Below, piece after piece: positions 11,282 through 31,886 of a stretch of DNA of 32,000 nucleotides. The stretch is from assembly GCF_016863655.1 (NCBI RefSeq), contig NZ_BOPH01000050.1:25665-57664 (forward strand), read 5' to 3'. How positions within the stretch are numbered: the first letter of the stretch is position 1; each line of letters starts with the position of its first letter. The notes beneath the pieces were generated by a model. The model was not told where the DNA came from and made no database searches. It saw only the letters and a list, made by a program, of their open reading frames with translations. The position numbers were made by a program, and so were the translations under genes. Source of the stretch: Virgisporangium ochraceum (GTDB taxonomy: Bacteria > Actinomycetota > Actinomycetes > Mycobacteriales > Micromonosporaceae).

Positions 11282-11328
11282 GGCGACTTTCTGCTGTCCG
11301 CGGTGGCCGGAGACAGCAGAAAGTCGCC
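11282..11328. terminator. Perfect 17-bp stem / 13-nt loop hairpin between convergent genes (candidate bidirectional terminator)
   Basis: GGCGACTTTCTGCTGTC (11282..11298) is the exact reverse complement of GACAGCAGAAAGTCGCC (11312..11328). The hairpin lies 12 nt after the DUF559 stop and 12 nt before the amidohydrolase stop. Confidence 0.6.
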
Positions 11329-11329
11329 A

Positions 11330-11338
11330 CCACTGTGG
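11330..11338. repeat. Iterated palindrome copy: CCACTGTGG
   Basis: Intergenic. It begins 2 nt after the 11282..11328 hairpin and ends 2 nt before the amidohydrolase stop. Confidence 0.9.
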
Positions 11339-11339
11339 A

Positions 11340-12164
11340 TCATGACTTGAAGAAGAGGCGCCTCGCGTTGCCGGCCAGGAAGAGGGCGCGGGCCTCGTCG
11401 TCCAGGCCGAGCTTGTCCAGGTGTTCGAGGCAGCGGGCGGGGCTGAGCATCGGCCAGTTCGAGCCGAACAGGACCCGCCCCCTCCCCCGTCCGCGCATGA
11501 AGTCGACCAGCTCCGGCGGGAGACGGTGCAGCGCGTAGGCGGAGGTGTCGACGTGGAAGTTCGGGTACTTGGCCGCCAGCGCCAGCACCTCGTGCATCCA
11601 TGGGTACCCGACGTGGCCGCCGACCACCACGAGGTCGGGGAAGTCGAGCAGCACCTCGTCGAGGTACGGGATCGGCCGTCCCGGTTCCGAGGGGAACAGC
11701 GGTCCGGTATGACCGATCTGCGTGCACAGCGGCACGCCGAGCTCGACGCATGCCACGTAGATCGGGTAGTACCGGCGGTCGTTCGGCGGCAGCTTCCACA
11801 GCCACGGAACGATCCTCACCCCGACGAACCCGAGCTCCGTTACTGCGTGGCGGATCTGGCGTGTGGCGGCGACCGGGTCGGTCAGGTCGACGGCCGCGAG
11901 GCCCGCGAAGCGGTCCGGATGCGCGTTCACCACCTCGGCGACCTCGTCGTTGGAGATGAGCGACCCGTTCGGCGCGTGCCAGGCCGAGAGCAACGCGGTC
12001 GTCACGCCGGCCTGGTCCATGGCGCCCAGGGTGGCCTCGACCGGAAGGGCGCGACCGACGGTGGGACCGGCGTTCTGCGTCCAGCGCAGCAGCGGCGCCA
12101 GCCATGGGACCTGGGTGAACCGCTCGGTCGGATGCTGTGCCCAGACGTCGACGATGTCGTCCAT
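11340..12164 (-). CDS. Amidohydrolase-2 family protein (ACMSD/LigW-like metal-dependent hydrolase/decarboxylase)
   Basis: Track ORF 274 aa: MDDIVDVWAQHPTERF...GVTTALLSAWHAPNG...FVGVRIVPWLW...IGHTGPLFPSEPGRPIPYLDEVLLDFPDLVVVGGHVGYPW...HVDTSAY...VLFGSNWPM, with characteristic His/Asp metal-ligand blocks. Confidence 0.8.
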   Translation of the reverse strand: MDDIVDVWAQHPTERFTQVPWLAPLLRWTQNAGPTVGRALPVEATLGAMDQAGVTTALLSAWHAPNGSLISNDEVAEVVNAHPDRFAGLAAVDLTDPVAATRQIRHAVTELGFVGVRIVPWLWKLPPNDRRYYPIYVACVELGVPLCTQIGHTGPLFPSEPGRPIPYLDEVLLDFPDLVVVGGHVGYPWMHEVLALAAKYPNFHVDTSAYALHRLPPELVDFMRGRGRGRVLFGSNWPMLSPARCLEHLDKLGLDDEARALFLAGNARRLFFKS

Positions 12165-12174
12165 GAGAACCTCA

Positions 12175-12188
12175 CTTCACTAGTGAAG
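12175..12188. promoter_or_regulatory. Perfect 14-bp palindrome CTTCACTAGTGAAG in the amidohydrolase/MarR divergent gap (candidate MarR operator)
   Basis: The sequence is self-complementary. It sits 11 nt from the amidohydrolase ATG and about 48 nt upstream of the MarR start. Confidence 0.5.
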
Positions 12189-12235
12189 CGAGACTAGAAA
12201 GCGGCGGGACCCCCGTCAAGCTCTGCAAGGATTGC

Positions 12236-12676
12236 GTGATGAGCGACGCCGAACCGGACCAGCGGGTGTTCCTCCTGCTCCAGCAGGCCGCACACCGGCT
12301 GCGGCTGTGGGCCGACCGGCGCAGCGTCGACCTCGCCGGAGTGACCACCGCGCAGACCGGCGCCCTGTTCGCGCTGCACGACGCGCCGAGGTCCACGCAA
12401 CGGGAGCTGGCCGCGGCGCTCGGGCAGCGGGAGTCCGCCGTCACGGCGATGGTGCGCCGGCTGCTCGACGCCGGGCTCGTCGAGCGTCACCCCAGCCCCG
12501 ACGACCACCGCGCCCACCAACTGGCCCTCACCGATTACGGGGTGGAAACCCTCGAAACCGTCAGGCCGTTGGTGGCCGAGTTCAACGCGATGCTGCGGCG
12601 GGTGCTCGGCGCCGACGGACCGCGCGCGCTCGCGGACGCCCTGCGGACCCTGCGCGACGCCGACGAGTTCCGATGA
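12236..12676 (+). CDS. MarR-family transcriptional regulator
   Basis: Track ORF 146 aa: ...FLLLQQAAHRLRLWADRRSVDLAGVTTAQTGALFALHDAPRSTQRELAAALGQRESAVTAMVRRLLDAGLVERHPSPDDHRAHQLALTDYG (MarR wHTH). Start is GTG 12236 or ATG 12239. Its TGA (12674..12676) overlaps the next ATG (12673..12675). Confidence 0.9.
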   Translation: MMSDAEPDQRVFLLLQQAAHRLRLWADRRSVDLAGVTTAQTGALFALHDAPRSTQRELAAALGQRESAVTAMVRRLLDAGLVERHPSPDDHRAHQLALTDYGVETLETVRPLVAEFNAMLRRVLGADGPRALADALRTLRDADEFR

Positions 12677-14180
12677 CCCTGGTCGACGTCCTCCTGCGGG
12701 CGGCCGACGAGGCACCGGACCAGGTGGTCGTGCACGTCCACGCCGACGGCACCGAGACCACGGTGACGCACCGCCAGCTGCGCGACGACGCGCTGCGGGT
12801 CGCCGCCGGCCTGTCGGCCGTTCCGCGGGGCATGCCCGTGATCCTCCGGTTGGACCGGAGCGCGGACTTCCAGGCGGCGTTCTGGGGCGCGGTGTGCGCC
12901 GGCCTCGTGCCGGTTCCGCTGGCTCCCGGCGCCACCCACGTGGCGGCGGCACTCGACCATCCACCCGTGGTCACGGCGGCCGACCTGCCCGCGTTGCGGC
13001 GCAACGGTTCCACCGGCGTGCGCCGGCGGGCGGCGGACGACCTCGCGTTCCTGCAGTACTCCTCGGGCAGCACCGGCGACCCGCGCGGCGTCGAGGTGAC
13101 GCACGCCAACATCGTGGCGAACCTGTCGCAGTCCGTCGCGGCGGGTGGCTTCCGGTCATCCGACGTGATCGTCACCTGGTTGCCGTACCACCACGACATG
13201 GGGCTGATCGGCAGCCATCTCGTGCCGCTGTCCGTCCACATGAGACAGGTCGTGCTCAGCCCGGTGACGTTCGCGAAGCGGCCCGTCCGCTGGCTGGAGA
13301 CCGCGACCCGGCACCGCGCCACGGTACTGCCCGCGGTGAACTTCGCGCTGGCGCTGGTCGTGCGGCGGGTACCGGACTGGGACGCGTTCGACCTGAGCCC
13401 GGTGCGGTTGTGCGCGGTCGGCGCGGAGCCGATCGCACCGGCCGTGTGGCGGTCGTTCCTGGAGAAGGCGGCGGCCGCCGGGCTGAATCCGGCCGCGGTG
13501 CAGCCGGTGTACGGGTTGGCGGAGGCGACCCTCGGCGTCTGCGCGCCGCCGTTGGGAGAGGCGGCGGTACCGGTGGTGCTCGACCGCGCGGCGCTGGCGG
13601 AAGGCCGGGCCGAGCCCGCTTCCTCCGGTGTGGGGGCCGAGTTCATGGACGTCGGCCACCCGGTGCCGGGATGCACCGTGCGGATCGTCGACGACGCGCG
13701 CGCCGCCCTGCCCGACGACCGCGTCGGCCACATCGAGGTGCGCGGACCGAACGTGGCCCGCGGCTACCACCGCGACCCGGACGCCACGGCACGGTCCTTC
13801 GTGGACGGTTGGCTGCGCACCGGCGACCTCGGGTTCCTCCGGCGTGGACGGTTGTGCGTCACCGGCCGGGCCAAGGACGTGGTGTTCGTCAACGGAGCGA
13901 CGCTCCACGCGTCGGACCTGGAGGCGGTGGCCGCCGCCACCCCCGGCATGCCGGCGGGCACGTGTGCGGTCGTGGGGACACCCGACCCGGCCACCGGCGC
14001 CGACCGCGTCGTGGTGTTCGTGCCGCGCCACAGCCCGGTGGCGCGCGTCGCGGGCCGGATCGCCGCGGCGACCGGGCACTCCGACGTCCACGTCGTGCCG
14101 CTCGCCACGCTGCCGCGCACGACGAGCGGCAAGGTGCGCCGCGCACTCCTGCGCGCCCGGTTCGAGGCGGGCGAGTTCCC
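12673..14180 (+). other. Domain: fatty acyl-AMP ligase (FAAL)-type adenylation domain
   Basis: Motifs: DLAFLQYSSGSTGDPRGVEVTHANIVANL, VTWLPYHHDMGLIG, YGLAEATLGV, WLRTGDLGF, TSGKVRR. Confidence 0.85.
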
Positions 14181-17100
14181 CGCGAAGCCCGACGCGGAGA
14201 GCACGGTCCGCCGCGCCTGGGGCAGGGCCCTGCGCCGGGACCCGGCGACCCTCGACGCGCACGACCGGTTCCTCGAGATCGGCGGCACGTCGCTCACGGC
14301 GATGCAGGTGCTGGCCGACCTCGAGGACGCGTACGGCGTCGAGCTCGACCCGCTCGTGCTCCGCGACCACGCGACGATCGCCCAGCTGGCCGGATACCTG
14401 GACGGCCACCGGCCGACCCCCGCGCGACCCACGACCGGCGCCGCGCCGGCAACGGGAACCGTGGCCGTCATCGGGATGGCGTGCCGGTTCCCCGGAGCCG
14501 ACACGCCCGAGCGCTTCTGGGACGCGCTGCTGGCCGGGTACGACGCCGTCGCCGACTCGACCCGCTGGGCCGGGTCCGGGTCGTTCCTCGACGATCCGGC
14601 GGCCTTCGACGCCGCGTTCTTCGGCCTCGACGCCGACGAGGCCGGGCACACCGATCCGCAGACCCGCATCCTCCTCGAAGTGGCGCACGAGGCGCTGGAA
14701 CGGGCCGGCTACGCCGGTCACCGCCGCCGCGGGGTACGGGTCGGTGTGTTCGCCGCGGCCGGCGAGAGCGGGTACGCCGACCTGCAGCGGCGGGCGGGCG
14801 TCTCCCCGCGGGCCGGGCTGATCGGCGGGCTGCGCACCCTCGTGGCCGCCCGCGTCGCCCACGCGCTCGACCTCGACGGGCCGGCGCTCGTCGTCGACAC
14901 CGCGTGCTCGTCGGCGCTCGTCGCCCTGCACCTGGCCCGGCTGAGCATCGCCGCCGGCGAATGCGACCTCGCCGTCGTCGGCGGGGTCAACCTGAACCTC
15001 ACCTCCGACGCCCACCGCGCGCTCGACGACGCGCGGGCCGTCTCGAAGACGGGGCGCTGCCGCGTGTTCAGCGCCGACGCCGACGGGATCGTGCCGGGCG
15101 AGGGCGCGGCGGCCCTGGTGCTCGCCGGTGCCGAGGCCGCCCGCCGGCGCGGAGATCCGGTGCTGGCGCTGGTACGCGGCAGCGCGGTCAACAACGACGG
15201 CCGCTCGCTCAGCGTCCTGACCCCGAACCCGCCGCGGCAGCAGGAGGTGATCGCCCGCGCGTACCGGGAGTCGGGGGTGGACCCGGCCCGGGTGTCCTAT
15301 GTGGAGGCCCACGGCACCGGCACGGTACTGGGCGACCCGATCGAGGTCCGGTCGCTGGCGCGGGCCCTGCCGCCCCGTCGCGACGGCCGGCCGCGGTGGC
15401 TGGGCTCGGTCAAGGCCAACCTCGGGCACCTGCTGAACGCGGCCGGCATGCCGGCGCTGGTCAAGGTCGTGCTGGCGCTGGGGCACCGGCGGCTTCCCCC
15501 GTCGCCGCACCACGACCCGGTCTCGACGCGGCTCGGCCTCGCCGGCGCGGGCCTCGCCGTGGTCGCCGGGCCCGTGGAGTGGACGGCCGACGGCCCGCTC
15601 GTCGCGGGCGTGAACGGGTTCGGCTTCGGCGGCACGAACGCCCACGTGATCCTGGAGGAACCGCCCACGGCACCGGTCTCCGCGCGGCGGCCGGGTCCCC
15701 ACCTGCTGACCCTGTCGGCCGGCAGCCCGCGCGCGCTCGACGAGGCGGTGGCCGCCCTACGCGCCCACGCCACCGCCCGGCCGGACCTCGGTGCCGGCGA
15801 CCTGTGCGCCAGCGCCGGCTCCGCGCGGGACCACGGCCGCCACCGCGTCTCGGTCGTGGTCGACGGCGACTCGGCCGCGGACGTGGCGGCCGCCCTGGCG
15901 ACCGCGACACCGGTGACGGCGGCCGGTTCCGCGCGGCTCGCGTTCGTCCTGCCCCCGACCGGGGGCGTCGGTGCGGCGCTGGCCCGTCGTCTCATGGCCG
16001 CCGGCATCCGCCCCGACACGGTGGTACGGGCCGGATCCGCCGTCGACGGGTCCGCGGTCGTCGTCGCGTTCGCCGGTGCGGCGCCGGGCGCCGCGGTGCC
16101 TGGCGACGGGCCGCGCGCCGCGGTGCCGGGCGCCCACGTGGTTCCCGCCGACGCCGACGGGCGGGCACTGCTCGCGCTCGCCGGCCGGCTGTGGGAGGTC
16201 GGCGTACCGCTGGACCGCACCGCGCTCGACGCCGGATCCACGCGCGTACCGGTGCCGACCTACCCGTTCCAGCGGCAGCGGTACTGGGTCGACCCGCCGC
16301 CGGCGCTGCACCGGCTCGACTGGCGGCCCGCCCCGCTGGCGGCCGGCGAGCCGCGACCCGTTCTGGTGCACCGGGTCGGCCCGTCCTCCACTGTGGACAG
16401 CGTCGGCAGCCTCGATGCCGAGGTCCGCGCGGCGGTCGCGGCCGTCCGCGGGCTGCTGGACCGGCGGACCGGCGCGGTCCTCGTGGTGACCGAGGACGTG
16501 TACGCCACCGGCGCACCCGGCGAGACGGTGCGACCGGCGCAGGCCGTGGCCGTCGGGCTGGCGCTGGCGCTGCCCGCGGAGGTACCCGGGCTCGGGGTGC
16601 GGGTCGTCGATCTGTCCACGGTGGACGGCGCCGACCGGCACGCCGCAGCGCTGGAGCGGGAGAGCACCGCGCCACCGGCGCCGGGCGCGGCCGAGGTCGT
16701 CGCGTGGCGCGGCGGTGAACGCCTGACCCGCGTGGCCGTACCGGTCGACGGTGCCGGTACCGGGCCGGTCGGCGGCGCCTATCTCGTCACGGGTGGCACG
16801 GGCGGCCTGGGCACCGCCCTGGCCCGGGACCTCGCCGCGAGCGGTCGGCCGACGGTCGTCCTCGTCGCCCGTGGCGCCACCCCGCCCGCGGACCTGCTCG
16901 CCGAGCTCCGGTCGCTCGGAGCCCGGGCCCACTACATCCCGTGCGATGTCGGCGATCCCGCTTCGGTCGAGGCGCTCGCCGCGGCCGTCGACGCGCTCGC
17001 GCCCACGCTGGACGCCGTGTTCCACGCGGCCGGCGTGCTCCGTCCGGGCAGCCTCGCCGCGCAGTCGGACGACGACCTCGCCGCGGTGCTGGCGCCCAAG

Positions 17101-20100
17101 GTGCGGGGAACCCACCTGCTCGCGGACGCCCTGCGCCCGCGCCGGTTCGTCTCGGTGTCGAGCGTCGTGACGCGCCGGCCCGGTCTCACGGGTGCCCTCG
17201 CCGGGTACGCCGCGGCCAACCACTTCCTGGCCGCCTCCGGCGCCGGCCGGGACGGTGCGGTGACGGTCCACCTGCCGCTGGTCGCCGACACCGGCATGGC
17301 CACGCCGGCGCTGACGGCGGCCCTCGCCGCGAAGGGCGTGCCCGTCGTCGACCGGGCCACCGCGGTGCGGGCGCTGCGGGCGGCCCTGACCGTCGACGGC
17401 GCGCACGAGCTGACGACCGTCGCCGAGGAACCGCCGCCGGAGCCCGGACCGCCACCCCCGGCCGGCCTGAAGGAGCTGCTGGAGCACCACGTCGGGCGGG
17501 AGCTGCGCACCGACGAGTCGCTGCTGCGACAGGGCATCGACTCTCTCACGGCGGTGGACCTCGTGAAGAAGCTGGAGCAGCGGCTCAACCGGGACCTGCC
17601 CACCACGCTGCTGTTCGAGTACGACACCATCGACGCGCTGGCCGGGTTCCTCGGCGAGGGCACGGCCCTCACGCCCGTGCAGCGCGCCTTCCACACGGCC
17701 GCCCGCATGTACCCGGACGTGCCCGCGTACGGCTACGTCCGGCAGACGCTCGACGGTCCGCTGGACGCCGCGCGGGTCGGCCGCGCGTTCGCGGTGCTGG
17801 CCGCGCGCCACCCGATGCTGCGGATGCGGCTCGTCGGCCCCGGGCCGCGGCAGGTGATCGCGCCACCGGCCACAGTGGACGTCGCACCGCCGTGGTTCAG
17901 CGAGGTGAGCCTGCGCACGACGCCGGAACAGCTCGACGAGGACCTGTGCAACCGGCCGATCGACCTCTTCCACGAGGCGCCGCTGCGCGCCGTGCTCGCC
18001 CGCGAGTCGTCCGGTCTCTCGCATCTCGTGATCGTCGGCCACCACGCCGCCGTCGACGGGTACAGCCTCCACCTGCTGTGCCAGGAGCTGTGGTCGATCT
18101 ACCGCGACGGCGCCGGCCCGGTGGCGCAGACCCCGTTCTCCGGGCTGCCGGTGACCCCGGCCTCCACAGTGGACACCGCGTACTGGCGGCGCGCGCTCGC
18201 CACCTACCCCGCCGGCCTCGCGCTGCCCTACGACGGAGACCCGTCCGCGGCACCGGCGCCGCCGCTGGTCACCCACCGGGTCGCGACCGACGCGGCGGCG
18301 CTGCGGGAAGCCGCCGCCGACGCCGGTGTCTCGCTGTTCCACCTCGTGCTCGCGTCGTACCTGCGGTGCCTCGCCACGTGGACGGGGCAGGAGCGGGTCG
18401 CGGTGACCGTCGCCCGGGCGGGCCGGGATGCCCGGGTGCCCGGGATCGGCGCGCTCATCGGTCCGCTCGCCGACGTGCTGCCGGTGGCGGTCGAGGTCGG
18501 CCCGGCCGACGACGTGCGCGCGGTGGCGGCCCGGGTGCGCGCGGCCTGGCTGGAGTCGGAGCGGCACGCATCGGTGTCCGGTGTGGACATCGGCCGCCTC
18601 GCGCCGGCCGGGGGCGCCGGGCTGCGGACGGCCGGGTTCAGCTTCGCCCGCTTCCCGGTGACCGTCGACACCGCCGGCCTGCCACCGGTGACCGCCACCG
18701 CGGCGGGCACCGGCTCGGCCGCCACCCGGCTGAGCCTGCTCGCGTGGGAGCTCGACGGGTCGCTGCACCTGTCGTGGACGTTCCCGCTCGCGTTGTTCCG
18801 CCGGGAGACCGTGGCGCGGCTCGCGACGGAGCACCTGGCCACGCTGACGGCCGCCGCGGGAGAGCACCCGGCCACGCTGACGGCCGCCGCGGGAGAGCGC
18901 CGGGCCGGGATCGTGCGCCGCGTCCTCGACCGCTGCGCCACCACGCCGGACGCCGTCGCCGTCGACCCGATGACGGGTCCGCCGCTCACCTACCGGGACC
19001 TCGACCGGGAATCCGGCCGCCTGGCCGCCGCGCTCGCGGCCCGCTCGGCCGGCGCGCGGGTCGGTCTGCTGACCCGGCCCGGCGTCGACACGGTCGTCGG
19101 CGTGCTGGGCGTGCTGCGGTCCGGCGCCGCGTACGTCCCGGTGGACGCCACCCACCCGCCCGGCCGCCTGCGCGACCAGCTCGACCGGGCCGGGGTCCGC
19201 CTGGTCGTGTGTCACGCGGCCACCGCCGACGCGGCGGCCGCGATCGGCCTGGAGCGGTTGGACCTGTCGGAGACCGGGGCGGCGACGTCCACTGTGGACG
19301 CCGAACCGGGTGACCTCGCGTACGTCATGTTCACCTCGGGGTCGACCGGCCGCCCCAAGGCTGTTCCGGTGACCCACACCGCGCTCGCCACCTACCTCGA
19401 CTGGGCCGTCGACACGTTCGGGTACGGGCCGGACGACCGGATGCTGCAGGTCGCACCGAGCTGTTTCGACGCCTCGGTGCGGCAGATCCTCGCGCCGCTG
19501 CTCGCCGGCGCGACGGTGGTTCCGGTCGACCGCGACCTGCTGCGCGACCCGGACGCGCTGCTCCGCCTCCTGGAACGCGGCCGGATCACGGTGTGGAGCT
19601 CGGTGCCGTCGCTGTGGGAACGGCTGCTCGCCGCCGCCGAACGACGGGCCGACCGGCCGGACCTGTCCGCACTGCGGTGGGTGCACGTCGGCGGCGAGCC
19701 GCTGGCGGTCGGCGCGGTGCGGCGCTGGTTCGACCTGTTCGGCGCGGGTGCACCGGTGACCAACCTGTACGGCCCGACCGAGACCACGATCAACGCGACG
19801 TACCACGTCGTCGCGCGGCGGCCGGCGGACGACGACCGCTCGGTCCCGATCGGACGGCCCGCCGCCGGTGCGCTCCTGCGGGTCGTGGACGACGACGGCC
19901 GCCCCGCCGACGAGGGCGAGCTGCTCATCGGCGGACCCGGCGTCAGCCCCGGCTACCTCGACGATCCCGAGCGCACGGCGGCCGCGTTCCGGTGGCGCGA
20001 CGGCCGGCGCTGGTACGTCAGCGGCGACGTGGTGCGGCGCCGCCCCGACGGCGTGCTGGAGTTCATCGGTCGCCGCGACGACCAGGTGAAGGTCCGCGGG

Positions 20101-22884: not shown

Positions 22885-22898
22885 CCGACGGAGACCGG

Positions 22899-23585
22899 TC
22901 AGAGCTGCGCGTCGAGAACGGGCGCGGTGCCGGCGAGGATGCGGAGCAGGTCGTCGCGGAAGCGGCTGATCGCCGCCGCCATCGCGGCGGCGGCCGCGTC
23001 GGGGTCGCGGGCGCGCAACGCGGTGAGCAGGGTCAGGTGCTCCTCGCGGATGCGGGGCGCACCACCCGGCACGCCGGCCGCGAACGCTGCCGCGATCGCC
23101 CGCTCGCTCTCGTCGAGCAGGCGCTCCACCAGCGCCTCCTGGCGGCTGTTCCCGGCGGCGGCCGCGACCGCCACGTGGATGTCGCGGTTGACCGCGAGGA
23201 AGTCCTCCACAGTGGACCCGCCTTCATCCGACAGCCGGCCGACGCGGGCGACGAGCCCGTCGACGACCCCGGCGTCGAGGACCGTCGCCGCGACGCGGGC
23301 ACCGGCCGGCTCGACCAGCACGCGCAGGTCGTAGATCTCCCGGACGTCGCGCAATGTCAACGGCGCGATCACGTGCCCGCGGCGCGGCTCCGCCAGCACC
23401 AGCCCCTCGGCCCGCAGCCGCGCCAGGGCCGCCCGTACGGCCGCCTTCGACAGCCCGAAGCGGTCGCTCAGGTGGGTCTCCGACACCGGCGCCGACGGCG
23501 GCAGCTCCAGCCGGACGATCGCCCGGCGCAGGCGGAGGTAGGCGGCGTTGCCCGACGACGTTGCCGGTACGGCGACAGTGCTCAC
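22899..23585 (-). CDS. GntR-family transcriptional regulator (FCD subfamily)
   Basis: Within track ORF 22899..23978(-). Translation AYLRLRRAIVRLELPPSAPVSETHLSDRFGLSKAAVRAALARLRAEGLVLAEPRRGHVIAP (wHTH) plus a helical C-terminal half. I prefer GTG 23585 (VSTVAVPATSS...). The ATG at 23606 is followed by AT-rich codons (tca ata caa). Everything upstream of 23606 in the track ORF is antisense to the aminotransferase. Confidence 0.85.
   Translation of the reverse strand: MSTVAVPATSSGNAAYLRLRRAIVRLELPPSAPVSETHLSDRFGLSKAAVRAALARLRAEGLVLAEPRRGHVIAPLTLRDVREIYDLRVLVEPAGARVAATVLDAGVVDGLVARVGRLSDEGGSTVEDFLAVNRDIHVAVAAAAGNSRQEALVERLLDESERAIAAAFAAGVPGGAPRIREEHLTLLTALRARDPDAAAAAMAAAISRFRDDLLRILAGTAPVLDAQL
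23206..23216. repeat. Iterated palindrome copy: TCCACAGTGGA
   Basis: Within the minus-strand GntR gene. Read as tcc act gtg gag (S-T-V-E). Confidence 0.9.
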
Positions 23586-23599
23586 GCCGTCCCATTGTA

Positions 23600-23632
23600 T
23601 TGACATGTCACGGCAGCAATGTTGACATGTCA
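23600..23632. promoter_or_regulatory. Two copies of TTGACATGTCA (10-bp perfect palindrome TGACATGTCA), start-to-start spacing 22 bp; candidate GntR operators overlapping promoter elements
   Basis: Copy 1 is at 23600..23610 and copy 2 at 23622..23632. Each contains a TTGACA hexamer. On the minus strand a TACAAT hexamer (23594..23599) lies 8 nt upstream of the GntR GTG, consistent with a leaderless mRNA. Copy 2 ends 2 nt before the aminotransferase GTG (23635). Confidence 0.55.
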
Positions 23633-23634
23633 GG

Positions 23635-24918: not shown

Positions 24919-24943
24919 GCAACGGCGAAAACGCCTCTACGGT

Positions 24944-24959
24944 GCTACGGATCCGTAGC
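24944..24959. promoter_or_regulatory. 16-bp perfect palindrome GCTACGGATCCGTAGC between the aminotransferase and glxA (short terminator hairpin or operator)
   Basis: The sequence is self-complementary. An extra direct CTACGG copy precedes it at 24937..24942. It lies 26 nt after the aminotransferase stop and 20 nt before the glxA GTG. Confidence 0.35.
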
Positions 24960-24978
24960 CTCGAAGGGGAAATCGCCT

Positions 24979-26889
24979 GTGAGACACCGGTTCCGTCAGC
25001 ACATCGTGCTCCCGTTGGTCGCGACCGGCGTGCTCGGTTTCGCCAACTTTCCGCCAGCGTTCGACGCCGTCACCGGTTGGCTGCACGAGCGAAAAATCAA
25101 CAGCGCCGACTACAAGCAGGCGCACGGCCACTGGCAGATCGTCGAGCTGCCGCAGCGGCAGCGGATCAACGCGATCCACGCCGCGGTGCTGCCGACCGGC
25201 AGGCTGCTGCTGATCGCCGGGTCCGGCAACAAGCGCGACCAGTTCGAGGCGGGCACGTTCCGCACCGTGGTGTTCGATCCGGAATCCGGTGCCACGACAG
25301 CGGTACCGACACCCACCGACCTGTTCTGCGCCGGGCACGCGTTCCTGCCCGACGGCAAGCTCCTCGTCGCCGGCGGCACGCTGCGGTACGAGGTGCTCCA
25401 GCCCGACGTGACGCGGGCGGGCGGCACGATGGTGGTCCGCAACGAGTCACCCGATCGGGCGGCATCGCTGCGCAAGGGAACGACGTTCATCGCACCCGAC
25501 GGACGCCGCTACCTCACCAACGACGACATCACCGTCGAGCCGGCCCGCAAGACCGGCGAGGGCCTCGCCACGAAGGTCACCGCGAGCGAGACCCGGGTGT
25601 GGGTCGACGCCGCGGGCCTGGGAGCGGGCTTCGTCAACAACGGCCCGGCGCAGTACCGGGTCGACGGTGCCACCGGCGGTGACGTCTACGGGGTCGCCGA
25701 GAAGATCACCATGGACAAGCAGGACTACCAGGGCCGCAAGGAGACCTACGAGTTCAACCCGTACACCGAGCGGTACGAGCGGGTCGCCGACATGCACGAG
25801 AAGCGCTGGTACCCCACGCTCACCGCATTGCCCGACGGCAAGGTGCTCTCGGTGTCGGGGCTCGACGGCGGCGGCCAGGTCGTCAACGGCGCCCAGAACG
25901 AGATCTACGACCCCGCCACCAAGCGGTGGACGCTGCGCCCCGACCTCGACCGGTACTTCGCGACGTACCCGGCGCTGTTCCAGACGGCGGTGCCGGGTCG
26001 GTTGTTCTACTCCGGGTCCAACGCCGGCTTCGGCCCGGAGGACCGCGGCCGCGAACCCGGGTTCTGGAACCTGACCGACAACTCGTTCCGCCCCGTGGGC
26101 GGCCTGCGCGACGCCGACCAGATGGAGACCTCGACGTCGGCCTGGGCCGGACCGGTGCAGAACCAGACCGTGATGGTGGTCGGTGGCGGCGGCATCGGCG
26201 AGTCGGCCCGCTCGACGAAGCGGATCGACCTGATCAACCTGTCGGACCCGGACCCCCGCTACCGCCCCGGCCCGGACCTTCCCGAGGGCACCCGCTACGC
26301 CCACGCGGTGACCCTGCCCGACGACACCACGCTCATCACCAACGGCTCCAACGACTACCGCGGCCGCGGAATGAGCGACAACCACACCGCCCGCCTCTAC
26401 CACCCGGCGACGAACACCCTGTCGGTGGTGGCCGACCCGCGGGTCGGCCGCAACTACCACAGCTCCGCCCTGCTCCTGCCCGACGGCAGGGTGCTGACGA
26501 TCGGCTCCGATCCCCTCTACAGGGACAAGAAGAACTCGATCTCGGGCGAGTTCGAGCAGCGGATCGAGATCTTCACGCCGCCCTACCTGTTCCAGGGTTC
26601 CCGACCGATGATCGAGGACGCCCCCGCCGCGGTGGCGCACGGCGCGACCTTCGAGGCCATGGTGAGCCGTCCGGTGAAGACCGCCCGCCTGATCCGGCCG
26701 GGCTCGGCCACCCACATGCTCAACACCGACCAACGCTCGATCGCGGTGGACGTGGCCCCCACGAGCACCGGCGGCGTCACCCTGACGGTGCCGGCCGAGA
26801 AGGCCCTCGTTCCGCCGGGCCCGTACCTGCTCTTCGTGGTCGACGAGGCGGGCGTCCCCTCGGTGGGCCGCTGGCTACGGGTGCAGTAG
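24979..26889 (+). CDS. glxA: GlxA-like radical copper oxidase (galactose-oxidase-like; Kelch propeller plus C-terminal DUF1929-like domain), N-terminally membrane anchored
   Basis: Track ORF 636 aa, GTG start with GAAGGGGA upstream. N-terminal TM segment HIVLPLVATGVLGFANF. Motifs: LLLIAGSGN, DLFCAGHAFLPDGKLLVAGG (Cys of the Cys-Tyr cofactor context), RWYPTLTALPDGKVLSVSGLD, YHSSALLLPDGRVLTIGSDP, and a C-terminal Ig-like end PPGPYLLFVVDEAGVPSVGRWLRV. Confidence 0.8.
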   Translation: MRHRFRQHIVLPLVATGVLGFANFPPAFDAVTGWLHERKINSADYKQAHGHWQIVELPQRQRINAIHAAVLPTGRLLLIAGSGNKRDQFEAGTFRTVVFDPESGATTAVPTPTDLFCAGHAFLPDGKLLVAGGTLRYEVLQPDVTRAGGTMVVRNESPDRAASLRKGTTFIAPDGRRYLTNDDITVEPARKTGEGLATKVTASETRVWVDAAGLGAGFVNNGPAQYRVDGATGGDVYGVAEKITMDKQDYQGRKETYEFNPYTERYERVADMHEKRWYPTLTALPDGKVLSVSGLDGGGQVVNGAQNEIYDPATKRWTLRPDLDRYFATYPALFQTAVPGRLFYSGSNAGFGPEDRGREPGFWNLTDNSFRPVGGLRDADQMETSTSAWAGPVQNQTVMVVGGGGIGESARSTKRIDLINLSDPDPRYRPGPDLPEGTRYAHAVTLPDDTTLITNGSNDYRGRGMSDNHTARLYHPATNTLSVVADPRVGRNYHSSALLLPDGRVLTIGSDPLYRDKKNSISGEFEQRIEIFTPPYLFQGSRPMIEDAPAAVAHGATFEAMVSRPVKTARLIRPGSATHMLNTDQRSIAVDVAPTSTGGVTLTVPAEKALVPPGPYLLFVVDEAGVPSVGRWLRVQ

Positions 26890-26896
26890 AACCGCG

Positions 26897-26926
26897 GTGG
26901 GACAGGGCCGGTCGGCCCTGTCCCAC
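26897..26926. terminator. 13-bp stem / 4-nt loop hairpin between convergent glxA and GH6 genes
   Basis: GTGGGACAGGGCC (26897..26909), loop GGTC, GGCCCTGTCCCAC (26914..26926). The arms are perfectly complementary. Confidence 0.6.
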
Positions 26927-26933
26927 GCCGGCA

Positions 26934-28010
26934 TCAGGACCTACGGGCCAGATCCAGCGCGTACTCCGGCCACCACGCACCGGCGCCGGGCTCCCCGGAA
27001 CGGCAGGCACCGTCCGACTCGCCGGGTCGTTTGATCCAGAGCAGTGCCGCCGCCCGCGGGTGCCCGGTGTCCACAGTGGGCGGTTGGCCGAGCTTGCGCC
27101 CCGGCGGGTTGCACCAGCTCGGCCCGCCGTTCACCTCGGCACCCGGAGCCGGGCCCGCGCCGTTGCGGCTCGTGTCGACGACGAACCGCTTCCCACCCAT
27201 CGCCGACGACAGGCGGTCGCCGTAGGCGAGGTTGTCCGCGGTCGGGATGAAGTTGGAGACGTTCAGGGAGAAGCCGTCGGCCGCGTCGCCACCGGCGCGA
27301 CGCAGCGCGCCGGCGAGCCTGCCCACGTCGGCGACCCACGCGGGATGGCCGGCGTCGAGGTAGACCAGGGCGTTCGGGGACGACTTCAGCGTGGTGACCG
27401 CGTCGCGCAGCAGCGCGTAGCGCTCGTCGGCCAGGTCTCCGCAGCCGTCGACGGTGTGCGGCACGGCGTCGGGCTCCACGACGACGACCGCGGGTCGGCC
27501 CTTCAGACCGGCCGCCACGGTGCGGATCCACGCCTTGTACGCCGCGGGTGACGCCGCTCCGCCGGCGCTGTAGCTGCCGCAGTCCCGGCCGGGGATGTTG
27601 TACGCGACGAGCACCGGCACCTGCCCGGCTGCCGCCGCGCGCGTCATGAGCGCGTCGACCTCCCGGGTCGCGTTGGTACCGGCGGTCAGCCAGTGGGCCA
27701 CCGCCCGGTCACCGATCTTGCGGATCTGCTGGGCGTCGGTGGCGCGGCTCTCGGCGATCCACCGCGCGGCCTGCTGGGTGGCCGGGTTCGCCGGGTCGAC
27801 GTAGAACTTCTTTCCCGCCAACGGGTTCGGTGGAAGGGGTGGCGGCGGCGACGGCAGCCCTTCCTGCTGTGCGTTGCCGCCCACACCACCCGGCAGCGCC
27901 GGTGCTCCGGTGCCGGTGACGGACGGCGGCTCGTCGGATTCGCATCCGGCCAACCCGGGAACCGACAACGCAAGGGCCGCAACGGTCGCAAGCCGAAGAA
28001 ATCTCGTCAT
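26934..28010 (-). CDS. cslZ: Glycoside hydrolase family 6 endoglucanase-like lipoprotein (CslZ-like)
   Basis: ATG at 28010 within track ORF 26934..28082(-). MTRFLRLATVAALALSVPGLAGC is a lipoprotein signal with lipobox LAGC. GH6 motifs: YNIPGRDCGSYSAGG, VVVEPDAV, YLDAGHPAW, WIKRPGESDG. Confidence 0.85.
   Translation of the reverse strand: MTRFLRLATVAALALSVPGLAGCESDEPPSVTGTGAPALPGGVGGNAQQEGLPSPPPPLPPNPLAGKKFYVDPANPATQQAARWIAESRATDAQQIRKIGDRAVAHWLTAGTNATREVDALMTRAAAAGQVPVLVAYNIPGRDCGSYSAGGAASPAAYKAWIRTVAAGLKGRPAVVVVEPDAVPHTVDGCGDLADERYALLRDAVTTLKSSPNALVYLDAGHPAWVADVGRLAGALRRAGGDAADGFSLNVSNFIPTADNLAYGDRLSSAMGGKRFVVDTSRNGAGPAPGAEVNGGPSWCNPPGRKLGQPPTVDTGHPRAAALLWIKRPGESDGACRSGEPGAGAWWPEYALDLARRS
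27071..27079. repeat. Iterated palindrome copy: CCACAGTGG (context GTCCACAGTGGG)
   Basis: Within the minus-strand GH6 gene. Read as ccc act gtg gac (P-T-V-D). Confidence 0.9.
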
Positions 28011-28051
28011 GAATCCATTCCGGTTCTCGACAAGCGGAAACCATAACCCAG

Positions 28052-28067
28052 CCACCCGAACGGGTGG
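28052..28067. promoter_or_regulatory. 16-bp palindrome CCACCCG-AA-CGGGTGG in the cslZ/cslA divergent promoter region
   Basis: Perfect 7-bp arms with a 2-bp spacer. It lies in the comparatively AT-rich 143-bp gap between the starts at 28010(-) and 28154(+). Confidence 0.4.
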
Positions 28068-28153
28068 ACTAAATCTGCGCATACATCACCTACCGGTGCG
28101 AACAGCCCCGACGCGAGTTAGCTTCACCGGGACCCGGAAATACCGTCCGCGCA

Positions 28154-30166
28154 GTGGAACCGAACATCCCTGTCTACGGCCGATCGTGGGCAAGGCTGGA
28201 GACATACAGCAAGCTCGCCGGTCCACTGCAGACGCCGGACGCCGACTATCGGGTCAGCTACCGGAACATGCGTGGCCGGCGGTACCTCGGTGCGGCGTTC
28301 ATCGCGGTGGCGAACGTGTGCGTCGAGATCGTGTTCTTCGCGTGGCTGCTGCAACCGGAGCACTTCGCCGACACCAACCCCGGTCCGGTCGAGAAGGTGG
28401 CGTTCGTCGCCAACATCTTCGTGATCGTGTCGATCGCGGTCGTCGAGGTGCTGCGGCTGCTCAACGTCGTGTCGTTGTCGTTGGCGTCGATCACCGCACG
28501 GGACCCGGTGCCGGTGACGCCCGACCCGACGGTCAGGGTCGCGTTCCTCACGACCATCGTTCCCAGCAAGGAACCGGTCGACGTCGTGCGTGAGACCCTC
28601 CGCGCCGCCAAGCGGATCCGCCACCGTGGTGTGTTCGACATCTGGCTCCTCGACGAGGGCGACGACGACGCGGTCAAGGCCATGTGCGACGAGCTGTCGA
28701 TCCGGCACTTCACCCGCAAGGGCGTGGAGAAGTACAACACCGCGAAGGGACCGTTCCGCGCGAAGACCAAGCACGGCAACTACAACGCCTGGGTCGACAC
28801 GCACGGCGCGGACTACGACGTGTTTCTCTCGGTCGACCCCGACCACGTGCCGTTGGCCAACTTCGCCGAACGGATCCTCGGCTACTTCCGCGACCCCGAC
28901 GTGGCGTACGCCGTCGGACCGCAGTGCTACAAGAACGGCGAGGCGTTCGTGACCCGCGCCGCCGAGTCGCAGCAGTTCCCGTTCCACAGCGTGATCCAGC
29001 GGGCCGCGAACCGGTACGGCGCGCCGATGCTCGTCGGCACCAACAACGCTGTCCGCATCGACGCGCTGCGGACCATCGGCGGGCTCGCCGACTCCATCAC
29101 CGAGGACATGGCCACCGGGTTGGCGTTCCACACGAAGCGCAACCCGGCCACCGGCAACAGGTGGAAGTCGGTGTACACCCCCGACGTGCTGTCCGCCGGT
29201 GAGGGACCGTCGAGCTGGAGCGACTACTTCAGCCAGCAGCGACGGTGGGCGCGGGGCACATTCGAGATCCTGCTGACCACGTACTGGCGGAAGTTCTTCA
29301 AGCTGTCGCCGGGCGGCATGCTGCACTACACGCTCATCACGACGTTCTACCCGTCGATGGCCATCGGCTGGATCCTCGGCATCGTCAACGCCGTGCTGTT
29401 CCTGGCGCTGGGCGTGAGCGGCATGACGATCAGCCCGCAGGTCTGGTTCGCGCTGTACACCGACGCCACCGCGTTCTCGCTGTGGCTCTACATCGACAAC
29501 CGGCGGTACAACGTGAGCCCGTACGAGCCGCCGGGGTCACGCGGGCTCAAGGGCATGCTGATGTCGGTGCTCGCCGCGCCGCTCTACGCCGTGCAGCTGC
29601 TCAGCACGCTCGGCCGGCGGCCGGCGAAGTTCGTGGTGACGCCGAAGGGGTCGAGCAGCAGCAGCGACGGCCTCCGCACGTTCCGCAACCCGATCGGGTG
29701 GGCGGTGCTGCTCGTCGGCGCCATCGTGGTGTCGTTCGTGCGCGGGTACGCGAGCCCGGCGGCGCTGCTGTGGCCGGTGACCGGTCTCCTCATCTGCCTG
29801 CTGCCACTGGTGCTCTGGCGCATGGAGGCGGTCCTCAACCGCGCGGAGGCGGCCGAGGCGTTCGTGCCGCGTCAGGCCGGGACGCCGGAGCACGCCGGCG
29901 ACATCACGATGGAGATGCCGAAGGCGCTGCTGCGCGAGCACCTGGCGGCCCGCGTCGGCGGCAACCCGCACGACGACGTCGGCGCGACGCTGATCATGCC
30001 GCGCGTCGACCTGCCGGCGCAGCGGTCCGGAAACGGGGCGACCGTGCGGGGACGCAGCGCCGTCTCGCCGGCGAACCGCGTGCCGGCGCAGGGACGCGGC
30101 CCCGACGGGTCGGGGGACGGTGTGCCCGCGCAGGACCGGAGCCCCGTCGACTCGGGGAACACGTGA
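28154..30166 (+). CDS. cslA: Cellulose-synthase-like family 2 glycosyltransferase (CslA-like), polytopic membrane protein with a disordered C-terminal tail
   Basis: Track ORF 670 aa, GTG start. GT2 processive-synthase motifs: FLTTIVPSKEP, WLLDEGDD, SVDPDH, SITEDMATG, FSQQRRWARGTFE (QxxRW). TM helices flank the catalytic domain. Confidence 0.9.
   Translation: MEPNIPVYGRSWARLETYSKLAGPLQTPDADYRVSYRNMRGRRYLGAAFIAVANVCVEIVFFAWLLQPEHFADTNPGPVEKVAFVANIFVIVSIAVVEVLRLLNVVSLSLASITARDPVPVTPDPTVRVAFLTTIVPSKEPVDVVRETLRAAKRIRHRGVFDIWLLDEGDDDAVKAMCDELSIRHFTRKGVEKYNTAKGPFRAKTKHGNYNAWVDTHGADYDVFLSVDPDHVPLANFAERILGYFRDPDVAYAVGPQCYKNGEAFVTRAAESQQFPFHSVIQRAANRYGAPMLVGTNNAVRIDALRTIGGLADSITEDMATGLAFHTKRNPATGNRWKSVYTPDVLSAGEGPSSWSDYFSQQRRWARGTFEILLTTYWRKFFKLSPGGMLHYTLITTFYPSMAIGWILGIVNAVLFLALGVSGMTISPQVWFALYTDATAFSLWLYIDNRRYNVSPYEPPGSRGLKGMLMSVLAAPLYAVQLLSTLGRRPAKFVVTPKGSSSSSDGLRTFRNPIGWAVLLVGAIVVSFVRGYASPAALLWPVTGLLICLLPLVLWRMEAVLNRAEAAEAFVPRQAGTPEHAGDITMEMPKALLREHLAARVGGNPHDDVGATLIMPRVDLPAQRSGNGATVRGRSAVSPANRVPAQGRGPDGSGDGVPAQDRSPVDSGNT
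30080..30163 (+). repeat. Imperfect 42-bp tandem repeat encoding the last 28 aa of CslA
   Basis: Unit 30080..30121 encodes VPAQGRGPDGSGDG and unit 30122..30163 encodes VPAQDRSPVDSGNT. DNA identity is roughly 70% by eye. Confidence 0.6.
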
Positions 30167-30199
30167 TCGCGGGGGGCTCCCCTGTGGAGCCCCCCGCGA
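30167..30199. terminator. 14-bp perfect stem / 5-nt loop GC-rich hairpin immediately after the cslA stop
   Basis: TCGCGGGGGGCTCC (30167..30180), loop CCTGT, GGAGCCCCCCGCGA (30186..30199). It begins 1 nt after TGA 30164..30166. Confidence 0.7.
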
Positions 30200-30807
30200 C
30201 CGGTTACCTGTGCCGACCTGTACGTCCAGCGGGGCCAGCCGTCGTGCCAGGAGGGCCGGACCGGCGACGCCGCTTCCGCGGTGCGCTCCTGGTCCGGCGG
30301 CGCGACGCTGACGGCGCCAGCCAGATCGGATGTGGCTGCCTCACCGGTGACGCCGCGGTTCCCCGTCGTCGTCGGCACACCCGCGGTGGCCGTCGGGAAC
30401 CAATGTCGTGCGGCGTGTGCCGGCGTGACCCCCACTCTGTCGACGCCCCGTCAGCTCCACCGTCCGGTGTGGACATCGGTGCGGTGGCCGGGTGTGCGTC
30501 GGTGGTCACGGGCGGCGTGGTCGCCGGTGGGCGTGGGCTGCGCCGGTGCGGTCTTCACGCGTCGGGCGCCGCCTCGGTGTGGATCCTCCATTCGTGTTCC
30601 CGGTCATACTGCCGGCCGGGTCGGCGGGTGAGGTGCGTCAGGTGTTTCCGGGCTCGGTACGTCCAGGCGGTCCGCGCTCTCGCGCGGCGCGCCGGCTCGG
30701 ACGGGCCCTGCGGCCGGTCCTCGCACTTCCGTTGCGCGCCATGTACCGAGTGTCCTTGCGATGGGACGCTCAGTACAAGGGGTGGCAACCGACCTGCACC
30801 CGGGGAG

Positions 30808-31311
30808 CTACTCGCCGATCACCCCGTCGATGCGCTCCCGCAGCAGGTCAGCGTGGCCCAGGTGCCGGGCGTACTCCTTGATGAGGTAGTGGTAGCTCCA
30901 GCGCACCGTGAACGGGCGCTCCGTGCCGAACCCGTCGTCGAGGCCGAGCTTGCCGAGCACCTCCCGCGACCATCCACAGTGGACGGCGAACGTGTCGAGG
31001 TCGTCGAACGCGGCCCCGGCGGACACGTCGTCGAAGTCGCCGTCGGGGCTGTCGTCGGTGCAGTAGAGGAGCCCGATGTCCGGCTCGGCCAGCTTGTGGA
31101 CGTACATCCGCTCCATCTCCACCAGGTGCCGCACCAGCCCGATCATCGACATGGGCGACGGCGGGCACGACTTCTCCGCCAGCTGCGCACCGTCGAGACC
31201 GGCGCACTTGTGCAGGATGCTCGCCCGGTAGTACTCGAGCCAGGCGTCCAACGACGCGCGCTCGTCGGCGACGCGGGGCGGGTCGATCCGGTCGACATCG
31301 GGAGCCGTCAT
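30808..31311 (-). CDS. DinB-family / DUF664 protein (mycothiol-dependent transferase-like four-helix bundle)
   Basis: Track ORF 167 aa: ERASLDAWLEYYRASILHKCAGLDGAQLAE...MSMIGLVRHLVEMERMY...WSYHYLIKEYARHLGHADLLRERIDG. Its ATG (31311..31309) overlaps the TetR stop (ATGA). Confidence 0.8.
   Translation of the reverse strand: MTAPDVDRIDPPRVADERASLDAWLEYYRASILHKCAGLDGAQLAEKSCPPSPMSMIGLVRHLVEMERMYVHKLAEPDIGLLYCTDDSPDGDFDDVSAGAAFDDLDTFAVHCGWSREVLGKLGLDDGFGTERPFTVRWSYHYLIKEYARHLGHADLLRERIDGVIGE
30973..30983. repeat. Iterated palindrome copy: TCCACAGTGGA
   Basis: Within the minus-strand DinB gene, in a different reading frame: gtc cac tgt gga tgg (V-H-C-G-W). Confidence 0.9.
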
Positions 31312-31886
31312 TCCGACACGCTACCGCCGTACGCGTTGAGGTAGAGCGCCAGGAACCGGTCCATCGCCTCCCGCACCCCGTCCTGGTCGCCGGTGGCGAG
31401 CAGGTCGAGCAGCAGTCCCCGCGTCACCGCGACACTCAACCGGGCCGTCGCACGCGCGTCCCCCGGCGGAACGCCGTTACGGACATTGAGGTCCGCGATC
31501 GGCGCGACCCACGACTCCACGACCCCCTCGAGCATCGCGGCCGTGTGCGGCCGCGACCGCAGCGCCTGGCTGTAGACCTCGAAGAAGAGCTTCTCGTACG
31601 GCCACATCGCCGGATCGGAGAGCCGTTCCCACAACCGCTGGCCCATCTCCACCGGCGGCAGCGACCCGTCGAGGTCGGCGAGGAACGCCCGCTGCCGGGC
31701 CTCGACCTCACGCACGACCGCGACGAGCAGCCCCTCCTTCGAGCCGAAGTGGTACACGAGCATGCGGTGGCTGGTGCCGAGCGCGGCGGCGAGCTGACGC
31801 AGGCTGACGTCGGCGATGCCGTGGTGTGCCGCGTATTCGACAGCCGCGTCCAGCAACGCGTCCCTTGCCTCACCCATGTACCACAT
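31308..31886 (-). CDS. TetR-family transcriptional regulator
   Basis: Track ORF 192 aa: ARDALLDAAVEYAAHHGIADVSLRQLAAALGTSHRMLVYHFGSKEGLLVAVV (TetR HTH). The start is ATG 31886 or, more likely, ATG 31877 (MGEARDALL). Confidence 0.9.
   Translation of the reverse strand: MWYMGEARDALLDAAVEYAAHHGIADVSLRQLAAALGTSHRMLVYHFGSKEGLLVAVVREVEARQRAFLADLDGSLPPVEMGQRLWERLSDPAMWPYEKLFFEVYSQALRSRPHTAAMLEGVVESWVAPIADLNVRNGVPPGDARATARLSVAVTRGLLLDLLATGDQDGVREAMDRFLALYLNAYGGSVSE

Follow-up and report, generated by a model that had tools for sequence, protein, structure and literature searches.

The window analysed here is a 32,000-nucleotide stretch of the Virgisporangium ochraceum genome, with a G+C content of 67–79%, in which copies of a short palindrome of the form CCAC-N-GTGG recur mostly inside genes. 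Genes were placed by third-position G+C and Pfam. They run from an MFS transporter, an acyl-CoA dehydrogenase, a CoA-transferase, a first GntR regulator (GntR1), a BAAT thioesterase, an Hsp70-like protein and an unknown protein, through a DUF559/AbiEi-like protein (10425–11270), an amidohydrolase, a MarR regulator (12236–12676) and a hybrid nonribosomal peptide synthetase–polyketide synthase (NRPS-PKS) megasynthase, to a second GntR regulator (GntR2), a class-III aminotransferase, GlxA, a GH6 protein, a CslA-like glycosyltransferase, an MST/DinB protein and a TetR regulator. The megasynthase is about 3400 amino acids long and ends at 22884. Its true start lies near 12676, and the MarR gene, which is missing from the initial annotation made by eye from the same letters, is directly upstream of it and overlaps it. 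The same DNA is present in the NCBI assembly GCA_039525495.1, and the closest named proteins are those of Virgisporangium aurantiacum (94% identity for the aminotransferase).

A family of 13-bp palindromes in the window

A pattern search of the window finds 11 exact copies of CCACNGTGG and seven copies of the 11-mer TCCACNGTGGA, against means of 1.38 (maximum 5) and 0.07 in dinucleotide-preserving shuffles, none of which gets to seven copies of the 11-mer. Both counts, and the places of the copies, agree with the initial annotation, whose coordinates differ by one to three bases because they mark the starts of the longer strings that it quoted. It was also right that no exact copy precedes 11330 in the first 11 kb and that the near-copy at 5777 is real. 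Its exact copies stand, but the family is wider than it had described, with degenerate members that include four in the first 11 kb. The unit is a 13-bp palindrome with the consensus GTCCAC-W-GTGGAC (also written GTCCANNNTGGAC, GTCCACNGTGGAC or GTCCACWGTGGAC) and the minimal forms GTCCA-N3-TGGAC and GTCC-N5-GGAC. Allowing at most one mismatch to GTCCANNNTGGAC, there are 19 sites between 3800 and 30984, where 1.4 are expected from dinucleotide shuffles and 2.7 from codon permutation. The individual members are listed in the table below.

The codon-preserving control that the initial annotation had called for leaves the excess standing. When synonymous codons were shuffled within each gene, preserving the proteins and the gene-wise codon usage, the mean counts were 4.1 for CCACNGTGG (11 observed), 1.3 for CCACWGTGG (8 observed) and 0.7 for TCCACNGTGGA (7 observed), and the observed count was reached in none of 500 shuffles in any of these cases. 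For GTCCANNNTGGAC with at most one mismatch, the 19 observed sites compare with a mean of 5.0 and a maximum of 12, and 0 of 1000 shuffles reached the observed number. A scan of all 2560 patterns that consist of a 4-mer, a spacer of N0–9 and the reverse-complement 4-mer placed GTCC-N5-GGAC (15 copies against 4.7 expected, z = 6.9) and TCCA-N3-TGGA (z = 6.4) as the top two outliers, with CCAC-N-GTGG at z = 4.1. The three patterns are three registers of one 13-mer. The spacing of the GTCC and GGAC halves is strict: the N5 spacer gives 15 copies, spacers N3, N4, N6 and N7 give 1, 1, 0 and 1, and the in-phase control spacers N2 and N8 give 0 and 5.

Mismatches within the 13-mer are concentrated at the inner AC/GT and at the outermost bases, while the CC...GG core is almost invariant, and the centre base is A or T in 15 of 22 members. 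Several imperfect members retain an intact TGTGGAC together with GTCC at the symmetric position, and their middle codon is then a rare T-ending one (GGT, GAT, CGT). No compensatory change was found on the opposite arm of mismatched members, either in the window or at L026, a locus of another actinobacterial genome, and the better half of the imperfect sites has no fixed orientation relative to transcription. These observations indicate a symmetric double-stranded DNA site that is read half-site by half-site and not an RNA hairpin; a structured RNA was also rejected on the lack of any Rfam hit in the window. Repeats or module duplication within the megasynthase were discarded as a source of the copies, since their flanks are unrelated, and even for the identical 18-mers at 18576 and 30462 the likeness ends with the site.

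Members of the 13-bp palindrome family in the window (the fourth column gives the start of an exact CCACNGTGG copy)
Position	Sequence	Location	Exact start	Reading	Remarks
3800..3812	GTCCATTGAGGAC	acyl-CoA dehydrogenase gene		codon phase unlike most sites	1 mismatch to GTCCANNNTGGAC; outside the sister-species loci
5777..5789	GTCCACACTGGAC	GntR1		S-T-L-D, rare ACA	
6356..6368	GTCCTCTGTGGAC	BAAT thioesterase gene, minus strand		S-T-E-D, ACA	
7838..7850	GTCCACGTAGGAC	Hsp70-like gene			
11328..11340	CACCACTGTGGAT	intergenic, just past the DUF559 terminator hairpin	11330		core CCACTGTGG exact, outer bases off; weak member
13794..13806	GTCCTTCGTGGAC	megasynthase			GTCCTTTGTGGAC in V. aurantiacum and L025, rare codon TTT
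16386..16398	CTCCACTGTGGAC	megasynthase	16388	S-T-V-D, ACT	conserved
16614..16626	GTCCACGGTGGAC	megasynthase	16616		perfect; 2 mismatches in relatives
17001..17013	GCCCACGCTGGAC				doubtful member, lost in relatives
17868..17880	GGCCACAGTGGAC	megasynthase	17870	A-T-V-D, ACA	conserved
18162..18174	CTCCACAGTGGAC	megasynthase	18164	ACA	this species only
18576..18588	GTCCGGTGTGGAC	megasynthase		S-G-V-D, GGT	identical in both relatives
19287..19299	GTCCACTGTGGAC	megasynthase	19289		perfect, identical in both relatives; flanks just 70–73% identical
20892..20904	GTCCGATGTGGAC	megasynthase			GTCCGAAGTGGAC in V. aurantiacum, centre T to A
21222..21234	GTCCCGTGTGGAC	megasynthase			GTCCCTTGTGGAC in V. 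aurantiacum
22026..22038	GTCCACCGTGGAC	megasynthase	22028	S-T-V-D	perfect; peptide not in Streptomyces/Micromonospora homologues
23205..23217	CTCCACAGTGGAC	GntR2, minus strand	23207	S-T-V-E	centre A/T swapped between species
27069..27081	GTCCACAGTGGGC	GH6, minus strand	27071	P-T-V-D, ACT	identical in V. aurantiacum
28619..28631	CGCCACCGTGGTG	cslA	28621	other phase	CCACNGTGG core exact; centre G/C, outer bases unmatched; probably a chance copy
30462..30474	GTCCGGTGTGGAC	intergenic			within a 640-bp non-coding stretch 88% conserved between species
30972..30984	ATCCACAGTGGAC	MST/DinB gene	30974	other frame, V-H-C-G-W, TGT and GGA	last site; at least 7 kb site-free beyond

The genic sites carry a cost in codons and residues. 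All six exact megasynthase copies, which lie in unrelated domains, read xCC-ACN-GTG-GAC and encode (S/A)-T-V-D, four of them with ACA or ACT, and the MST/DinB copy reads V-H-C-G-W in another frame; all of this had been seen by eye in the initial annotation. Its remark that these threonine codons are rare is also borne out, as ACA and ACT together account for 5.3% of the window's 608 Thr codons and for 8 of the 11 at site centres. More broadly, A/T-ending codons amount to 7.6% of all codons in the window and to 69% (11/16) at site centres; an A or T at the dyad forces rare codons. The peptide itself is not what is shared. S-x-V-D is missing from the Streptomyces and Micromonospora megasynthase homologues at three alignable sites, where the residues are variable and different, and a conserved protein motif was rejected on this ground. 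At the GH6 site both Virgisporangium species (V. ochraceum and V. aurantiacum) have CCC ACT GTG GAC, whereas 12 other Micromonosporaceae, including V. aliadipatigenens, have CCG ACG/ACC followed by varied codons, and the GntR2 site reads TCC ACW GTG GAG in these species versus TCG ATC GAC in a distant orthologue. By these alignments, the GH6 and GntR2 sites arose through lineage-specific synonymous and non-synonymous substitutions. Together with the megasynthase comparison, they indicate that the motif was placed in tolerant positions of existing genes. The signal lies in the DNA and not in the protein.

Conservation in relatives and distribution among loci

Two relatives allow the sites to be followed in orthologous DNA, namely the corresponding region of V. 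aurantiacum (L019), which is 81% identical to the window overall and 67% identical at third codon positions of the megasynthase, and a metagenome relative (L025) of about 79% nucleotide identity. Conservation in orthologues was another check that the initial annotation had proposed, and in V. aurantiacum 14 of the 16 alignable window sites are still in place with no more than two mismatches to the palindrome; L025 keeps the same sites as the window. In BLAST alignments covering 11–16 sites, mean site identity is 10.9 of 12 positions, against 9.5 in phase-matched windows (resampling p = 0.003; p = 0.007 against G+C-ending controls). Position by position, the leftmost base and the free centre each have an identity of 0.71 and the rest of the 13 bp have 0.86–1.0, and just to the right the values fall to 0.57, 0.64 and 0.36. 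The A/T centre is kept in V. aurantiacum at 7 of 7 megasynthase sites, compared with 31.5% retention at other A/T third positions, and all other aligned A/T-centre sites retain A or T as well. The centre has swapped between A and T at two sites (23205 and 20892), and at other sites the amino acid has changed with a T-ending codon retained (CGT to CTT, TTC to TTT). Intergenic and other-frame copies are also conserved. That purifying selection at the DNA level keeps the sites is, as far as these alignments reach, demonstrable. Every site in V. aurantiacum has its counterpart in the window, which indicates that the array is older than the split of the two species and that its turnover has been low.

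Density between 3800 and 30984 is 0.70 sites per kb, and the corresponding 13 kb of V. aurantiacum reaches 0.91 per kb; the MST gene holds the last site in both species. Sampling covered some 120 kb from Virgisporangium together with a few loci of other lineages. Strong over-representation against composition- and codon-aware nulls is seen in the window and at L019, L025, L026, L015 and L109. Among the Virgisporangium loci, the window, L019 and L109 are dense, while L022 (no site) and L006 (one site) are at chance level. L109 is an unrelated V. aliadipatigenens locus with seven GTCCANNNTGGAC sites at one mismatch or fewer in 21 kb and 0–1 copies at other spacers. By the same threshold, L026 has 11 sites against 0.67 expected, with a free inner triplet that leaves GTCCA-N3-TGGAC as the common denominator, and three of the four exact GTCC-N5-GGAC sites in its aligned part are at the same positions in its orthologue L036 (78% identity). 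A further eight sites occur at L015, and GTCC-N5-GGAC is the top spacer-specific palindrome at L109, L026 and L015 alike. GlxA loci from 17 other genomes (Dactylosporangium, Actinoplanes and V. aliadipatigenens; 349 kb) stay at background, with 10 copies of CCACNGTGG that are nearly all G/C-centred. The element is dispersed but patchy, both within genomes and across lineages.

Several further observations on these loci were made in passing. L015 (CAWACW010000011.1) is a metagenome-assembled genome labelled Candidatus Melainabacteria that has 70% G+C and an actinobacterial-type glxA-GH6-cslA locus, and its taxonomic label looks wrong. Across the segment that corresponds to 24919–30166 of the window, V. 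aurantiacum (L019 11257–12300) is missing glxA and cslA, and GH6 directly follows the aminotransferase; in the window these two genes hold almost no motif sites. In L018, a JCM draft of the same organism as the window, a break of about 60 bp in glxA (near 12418, against 25778–25840 of the window) reduces the call to 348 amino acids from about 636, which is probably an assembly error or an indel. The non-coding stretch at 30166–30808 is 640 bp long with no convincing open reading frame, and its 88% identity to L019 12296–12980 compares with 79–82% in the flanking coding DNA. It carries site 30462 and a hairpin, GGGGGGCTCCCCTGTGGAGCCCCCC, at 30170–30195, has no Rfam match, and could be an unannotated RNA or a regulatory region.

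Proposed selected recognition sites and rival explanations

We read the copies as one family of selected, two-fold symmetric 13-bp sites, an actinobacterial counterpart of HIP1 (the highly iterated palindrome 1 of cyanobacteria) for a putative dimeric protein, and put the probability of this reading at about one half. The sites would have been laid onto pre-existing coding sequence in the Virgisporangium lineage and kept by selection at the DNA level. Their reader would be a dimer, be it a DNA-binding protein of the nucleoid type or a DNA-modifying enzyme that is symmetric, and its two subunits would touch GTCC and GGAC, which lie roughly a helical turn from each other. The uncontacted dyad base, preferably A or T, would make the DNA easier to deform. 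Many such sites, 0.3–1.6 kb apart, would produce a densely occupied chromosome patch, here of about 27 kb. We infer that a protein reads the sites and that the purpose is chromosome structuring or domain marking. More tentatively, they might represent the first HIP-like system outside cyanobacteria, in which patches of tens of kb are read by a candidate protein of the nucleoid or of chromosome domains, or by a DNA-modifying enzyme that is symmetric, with an effect powerful enough to alter codons and residues in giant biosynthetic genes. If the NRPS-PKS cluster were synonymously recoded or refactored, some twelve conserved DNA sites would be lost, and where such genes use rare codons for Thr, Gly and Asp, translational tuning need not be the reason.

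A number of points weigh against the selected-site reading. A further 40 kb of V. ochraceum and V. aurantiacum DNA holds no site (window 1–3799 and 30985–32000, 6.3 kb past the window end in L018, 8.1 kb past MST in L019 and the unrelated 20.9 kb of L022), and the array could be purely local. Nearly all genic sites lie in one codon phase, which is common to 8 of the 10 genic exact copies and is tentatively attributed to codon compatibility. The control palindromes GTCG-N-CGAC (20 copies) and CTCG-N-CGAG (17 copies) are about two-fold above synonymous shuffles in the window, so part of any palindrome excess here reflects codon-pair or context bias unrelated to the 13-mer; the synonymous-shuffle null is somewhat liberal, yet the 13-mer stands much further above it and heads the ranking. 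The literature searched yielded no protein that binds or methylates DNA with this specificity; queries with the motif sequence in several notations returned just primers or nothing relevant, and no HIP-like palindrome in actinobacteria was found there. A methylation-directed or mismatch-repair drive of the kind proposed for HIP1 (PMC4390886) would likewise conserve sites.

The initial annotation had offered a methylation or restriction-modification target, a protein site and a repair bias as options. The restriction target drops out because avoidance would predict depletion and the motif is enriched, the protein recognition site fits best, and the repair option is a possible but, in our view, unlikely alternative. 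Under this alternative, sequence-directed repair or a methylation-dependent mismatch-correction drive, modelled on very-short-patch repair by Vsr in E. coli or on Elhai's account of HIP1, creates or restores the palindrome without benefit from the sites. It would explain the residue-changing substitutions toward the motif and the retention of sites in both species, a methylation-dependent repair ratchet has been proposed for HIP1 (PMC4390886), and the occurrence of the motif among lineages is phylogenetically patchy. A protein with a Vsr-like nuclease fold, DUF559, is encoded inside the patch, and another in the patch of L026 and L036. However, L022 is free of sites although it encodes a 77%-identical DUF559 paralogue, the 22 kb of L015 carry sites without encoding DUF559, and 654 kb of other metagenomic DUF559 loci have no overall motif excess, only the L026 orthologue exceeding expectation; a general link between DUF559 and the motif was rejected on the last of these. 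A drive acting genome-wide should not leave 40 kb of the same genomes empty, and with no site of its own gained in V. aurantiacum since the split, retention fits better than continuing creation. The inner positions are degenerate, A and T are interchangeable at the centre, and the window encodes no methyltransferase. Elhai's ratchet is a possible source of the sites, one that fits the empty regions and the low gain of new sites less well. The degenerate, symmetric, half-site-wise pattern, the A/T dyad and the low turnover point to selected recognition sites more than to a continuing repair drive. Horizontal transfer from a motif-rich donor, with the sites as its relic, was also rejected, given that retention is far above neutral decay and that sites were created in the native GH6 and GntR2 genes.

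It is improbable that a regulator dedicated to the NRPS-PKS (MarR, GntR or TetR) uses the sites as its operators, with the sites acting as intragenic roadblocks or looping sites that silence the cluster. The array reaches its highest density in the 10-kb megasynthase and the genes around it, and its right edge coincides with the MST-TetR operon in both species; four transcription factors have their genes in the patch or beside it. Against this, the sites are overwhelmingly intragenic, with just two or three intergenic and none within a divergent promoter; they also occur in the native neighbours GH6 and GntR2, equally dense arrays exist at loci without the cluster (L109, L026, L015), and the synthetase homologues of Streptomyces and Micromonospora lack the site peptides. 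Furthermore, the promoters of the four regulators each carry a different sequence of their own, so that none is a likely reader of the 13-mer. The divergent MarR promoter has CTCACTTCACT/AGTGAAGCGAG at 12171–12192, a 22-bp palindrome (CTCACTTCACTAGTGAAGCGAG). GntR2 and the aminotransferase are separated by a 49-bp gap in which TTGACATGTCA (palindrome TGACATGTCA) occurs twice in direct orientation, at 23596–23631; this is the likely GntR2 operator. Two tandem TGTACCACATGGTACA palindromes at 31877–31908, which overlap the TetR start codon opposite a divergent polyketide-cyclase gene, are the likely TetR operator, and the GntR1 promoter has a TTTGATA repeat. As a separate observation, the GntR2-aminotransferase pair is conserved in distant genomes without a megasynthase (L027, L028).

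A further alternative takes the half-site as a DnaA box and the region as a DnaA-titrating or DnaA-regulating cluster, like datA or the DnaA-box clusters of Bacillus. The high-affinity actinobacterial box is TTGTCCACA in M. tuberculosis and S. coelicolor (PMC4285127, Table 1), and the heptamer GTCCACA, found in the best half-sites, is its positions 3–9 (PMC4285127). In the window, 9 copies of TTGTCCACA with at most one mismatch are found where 2.5 would be expected, and 14 of GTCCACA where the expectation is 4.7. An A or T centre leaves exactly one perfect GTCCACA per site, and a perfect box lies at 10364–10372, upstream of DUF559. What is conserved is nevertheless not the nine positions of the box. 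Its T1/T2 positions are unconserved (0.57–0.64 just outside the 13-mer) with no preference for T at position −2, and a symmetric GTCC partner at fixed spacing is required. In 5 of 14 TGTGGAC copies this partner half retains GTCC though CACA, the most conserved part of the DnaA box, is lost, and the inner triplet is free in L026 and L036, the variants in L026 having lost the CACA core. Known DnaA-box clusters are compact, at most about 1 kb, and are not known to extend across 27 kb of coding sequence as the sites do here. We rejected the cluster on these grounds and regard it as a quite remote prospect. Least probable is an excess without meaning at the DNA level, arising as a by-product of an S-T-V-D-like peptide, of codon-pair bias or of repeated megasynthase modules. 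Many of the exact copies in the common phase encode S/A-T-V-D, the protein sequence alone lifts the expectation from 2.7 to 5.0, and other palindromes also exceed their shuffles. This view is countered by observed counts that synonymous shuffles never reach, the use of the rarest Thr codons, the unrelated flanks in different domains, the unconserved peptides and the conservation of intergenic and other-frame copies.

The DUF559 genes have flanking features of their own. A conserved DnaA-box-like 11-mer, TT(G/A)TCCACAGG, precedes every DUF559/AbiEi-like gene of this subfamily, at 10364–10374 in the window, about 9920 and 9955 in L022, about 655 in L025 and 628–667 in L029, where two copies form a perfect 40-bp palindrome; in L026 and L036 the sequence upstream of DUF559 is TTATCCACAGG. 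The 11-mer could be an autoregulatory operator or a genuine DnaA box. On the 3' side, a long G+C-rich hairpin follows each DUF559 gene (window, L022 and L029), in the window GGCGACTTTCTGCTGTC...GACAGCAGAAAGTCGCC at 11284–11327, and an apparent site with two mismatches at 11296 is merely the loop of this hairpin.

Comparison with known systems

Short intragenic motifs at about one per kb, in permissive frames, are known from DNA uptake and uptake signal sequences (DUS/USS) and from the Dcm/Vsr motif CCWGG, which are kept by molecular drive and not for a function of the genes that hold them. The 13-mer resembles them in density, intragenic position and frame. However, DUS/USS are non-palindromic and tied to natural competence, which is not in evidence here, and the excess of CCWGG is well under two-fold and genome-wide, with no Dcm-like methylase in evidence here. 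Closer in form are parS/ParB, matS/MatP (GTGACRNYGTCAC) and the Noc-binding sites (NBS/Noc), which are palindromes of 13–16 bp that are mostly intragenic, conserved in position and confined to a region, matS being a 13-mer with a free centre. The sequence here differs, and its density, about one site per 1.4 kb, is 10–100 times higher. The window has no match to the 16-bp parS sequence TGTTTCACGTGAAACA with up to three mismatches and no dif-like site, and there is no ParB-, MatP- or Noc-like gene nearby.

The likeness to HIP1 (GCGATCGC) that the initial annotation noticed is the closest of these, and much of it is sustained. In cyanobacteria, HIP1 is in 15- to 300-fold excess, its exact and one-off sites are conserved in ways that codons or peptides leave unexplained, lineage variants exist, its density is modulated with periods of 18–94 kb, and a role in nucleoid-protein binding has been proposed (Xu, Lawrence and Durand; PMC5861425). 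The 13-mer shares with it a short, mostly intragenic palindrome far above expectation at the cost of codons, exact and one-mismatch copies kept between genomes beyond codon or peptide constraint (PMC5861425), a preferred sequence that drifts among lineages and a density that varies over tens of kb. In contrast to HIP1, no methyltransferase is linked to the motif here; 40 kb is site-free, and genome-wide hyper-abundance may not hold. Phylum and sequence are different, the local excess is about 4- to 14-fold, and the site is bipartite over 13 bp with an uncontacted or A/T centre, in contrast to a contiguous 8-mer. Palindromes in such excess that they prevail over codon preference have been described chiefly in cyanobacteria, where the function of HIP1 has been sought for three decades. 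A second, independent example in high-G+C actinomycetes, with a more specific symmetric site and sharp patch boundaries, would permit direct tests of domain-organizing binding sites against methylation marks and repair footprints, and if the reading proposed here is true, a site longer and more specific than HIP1 could offer a tractable route to the function of such elements.

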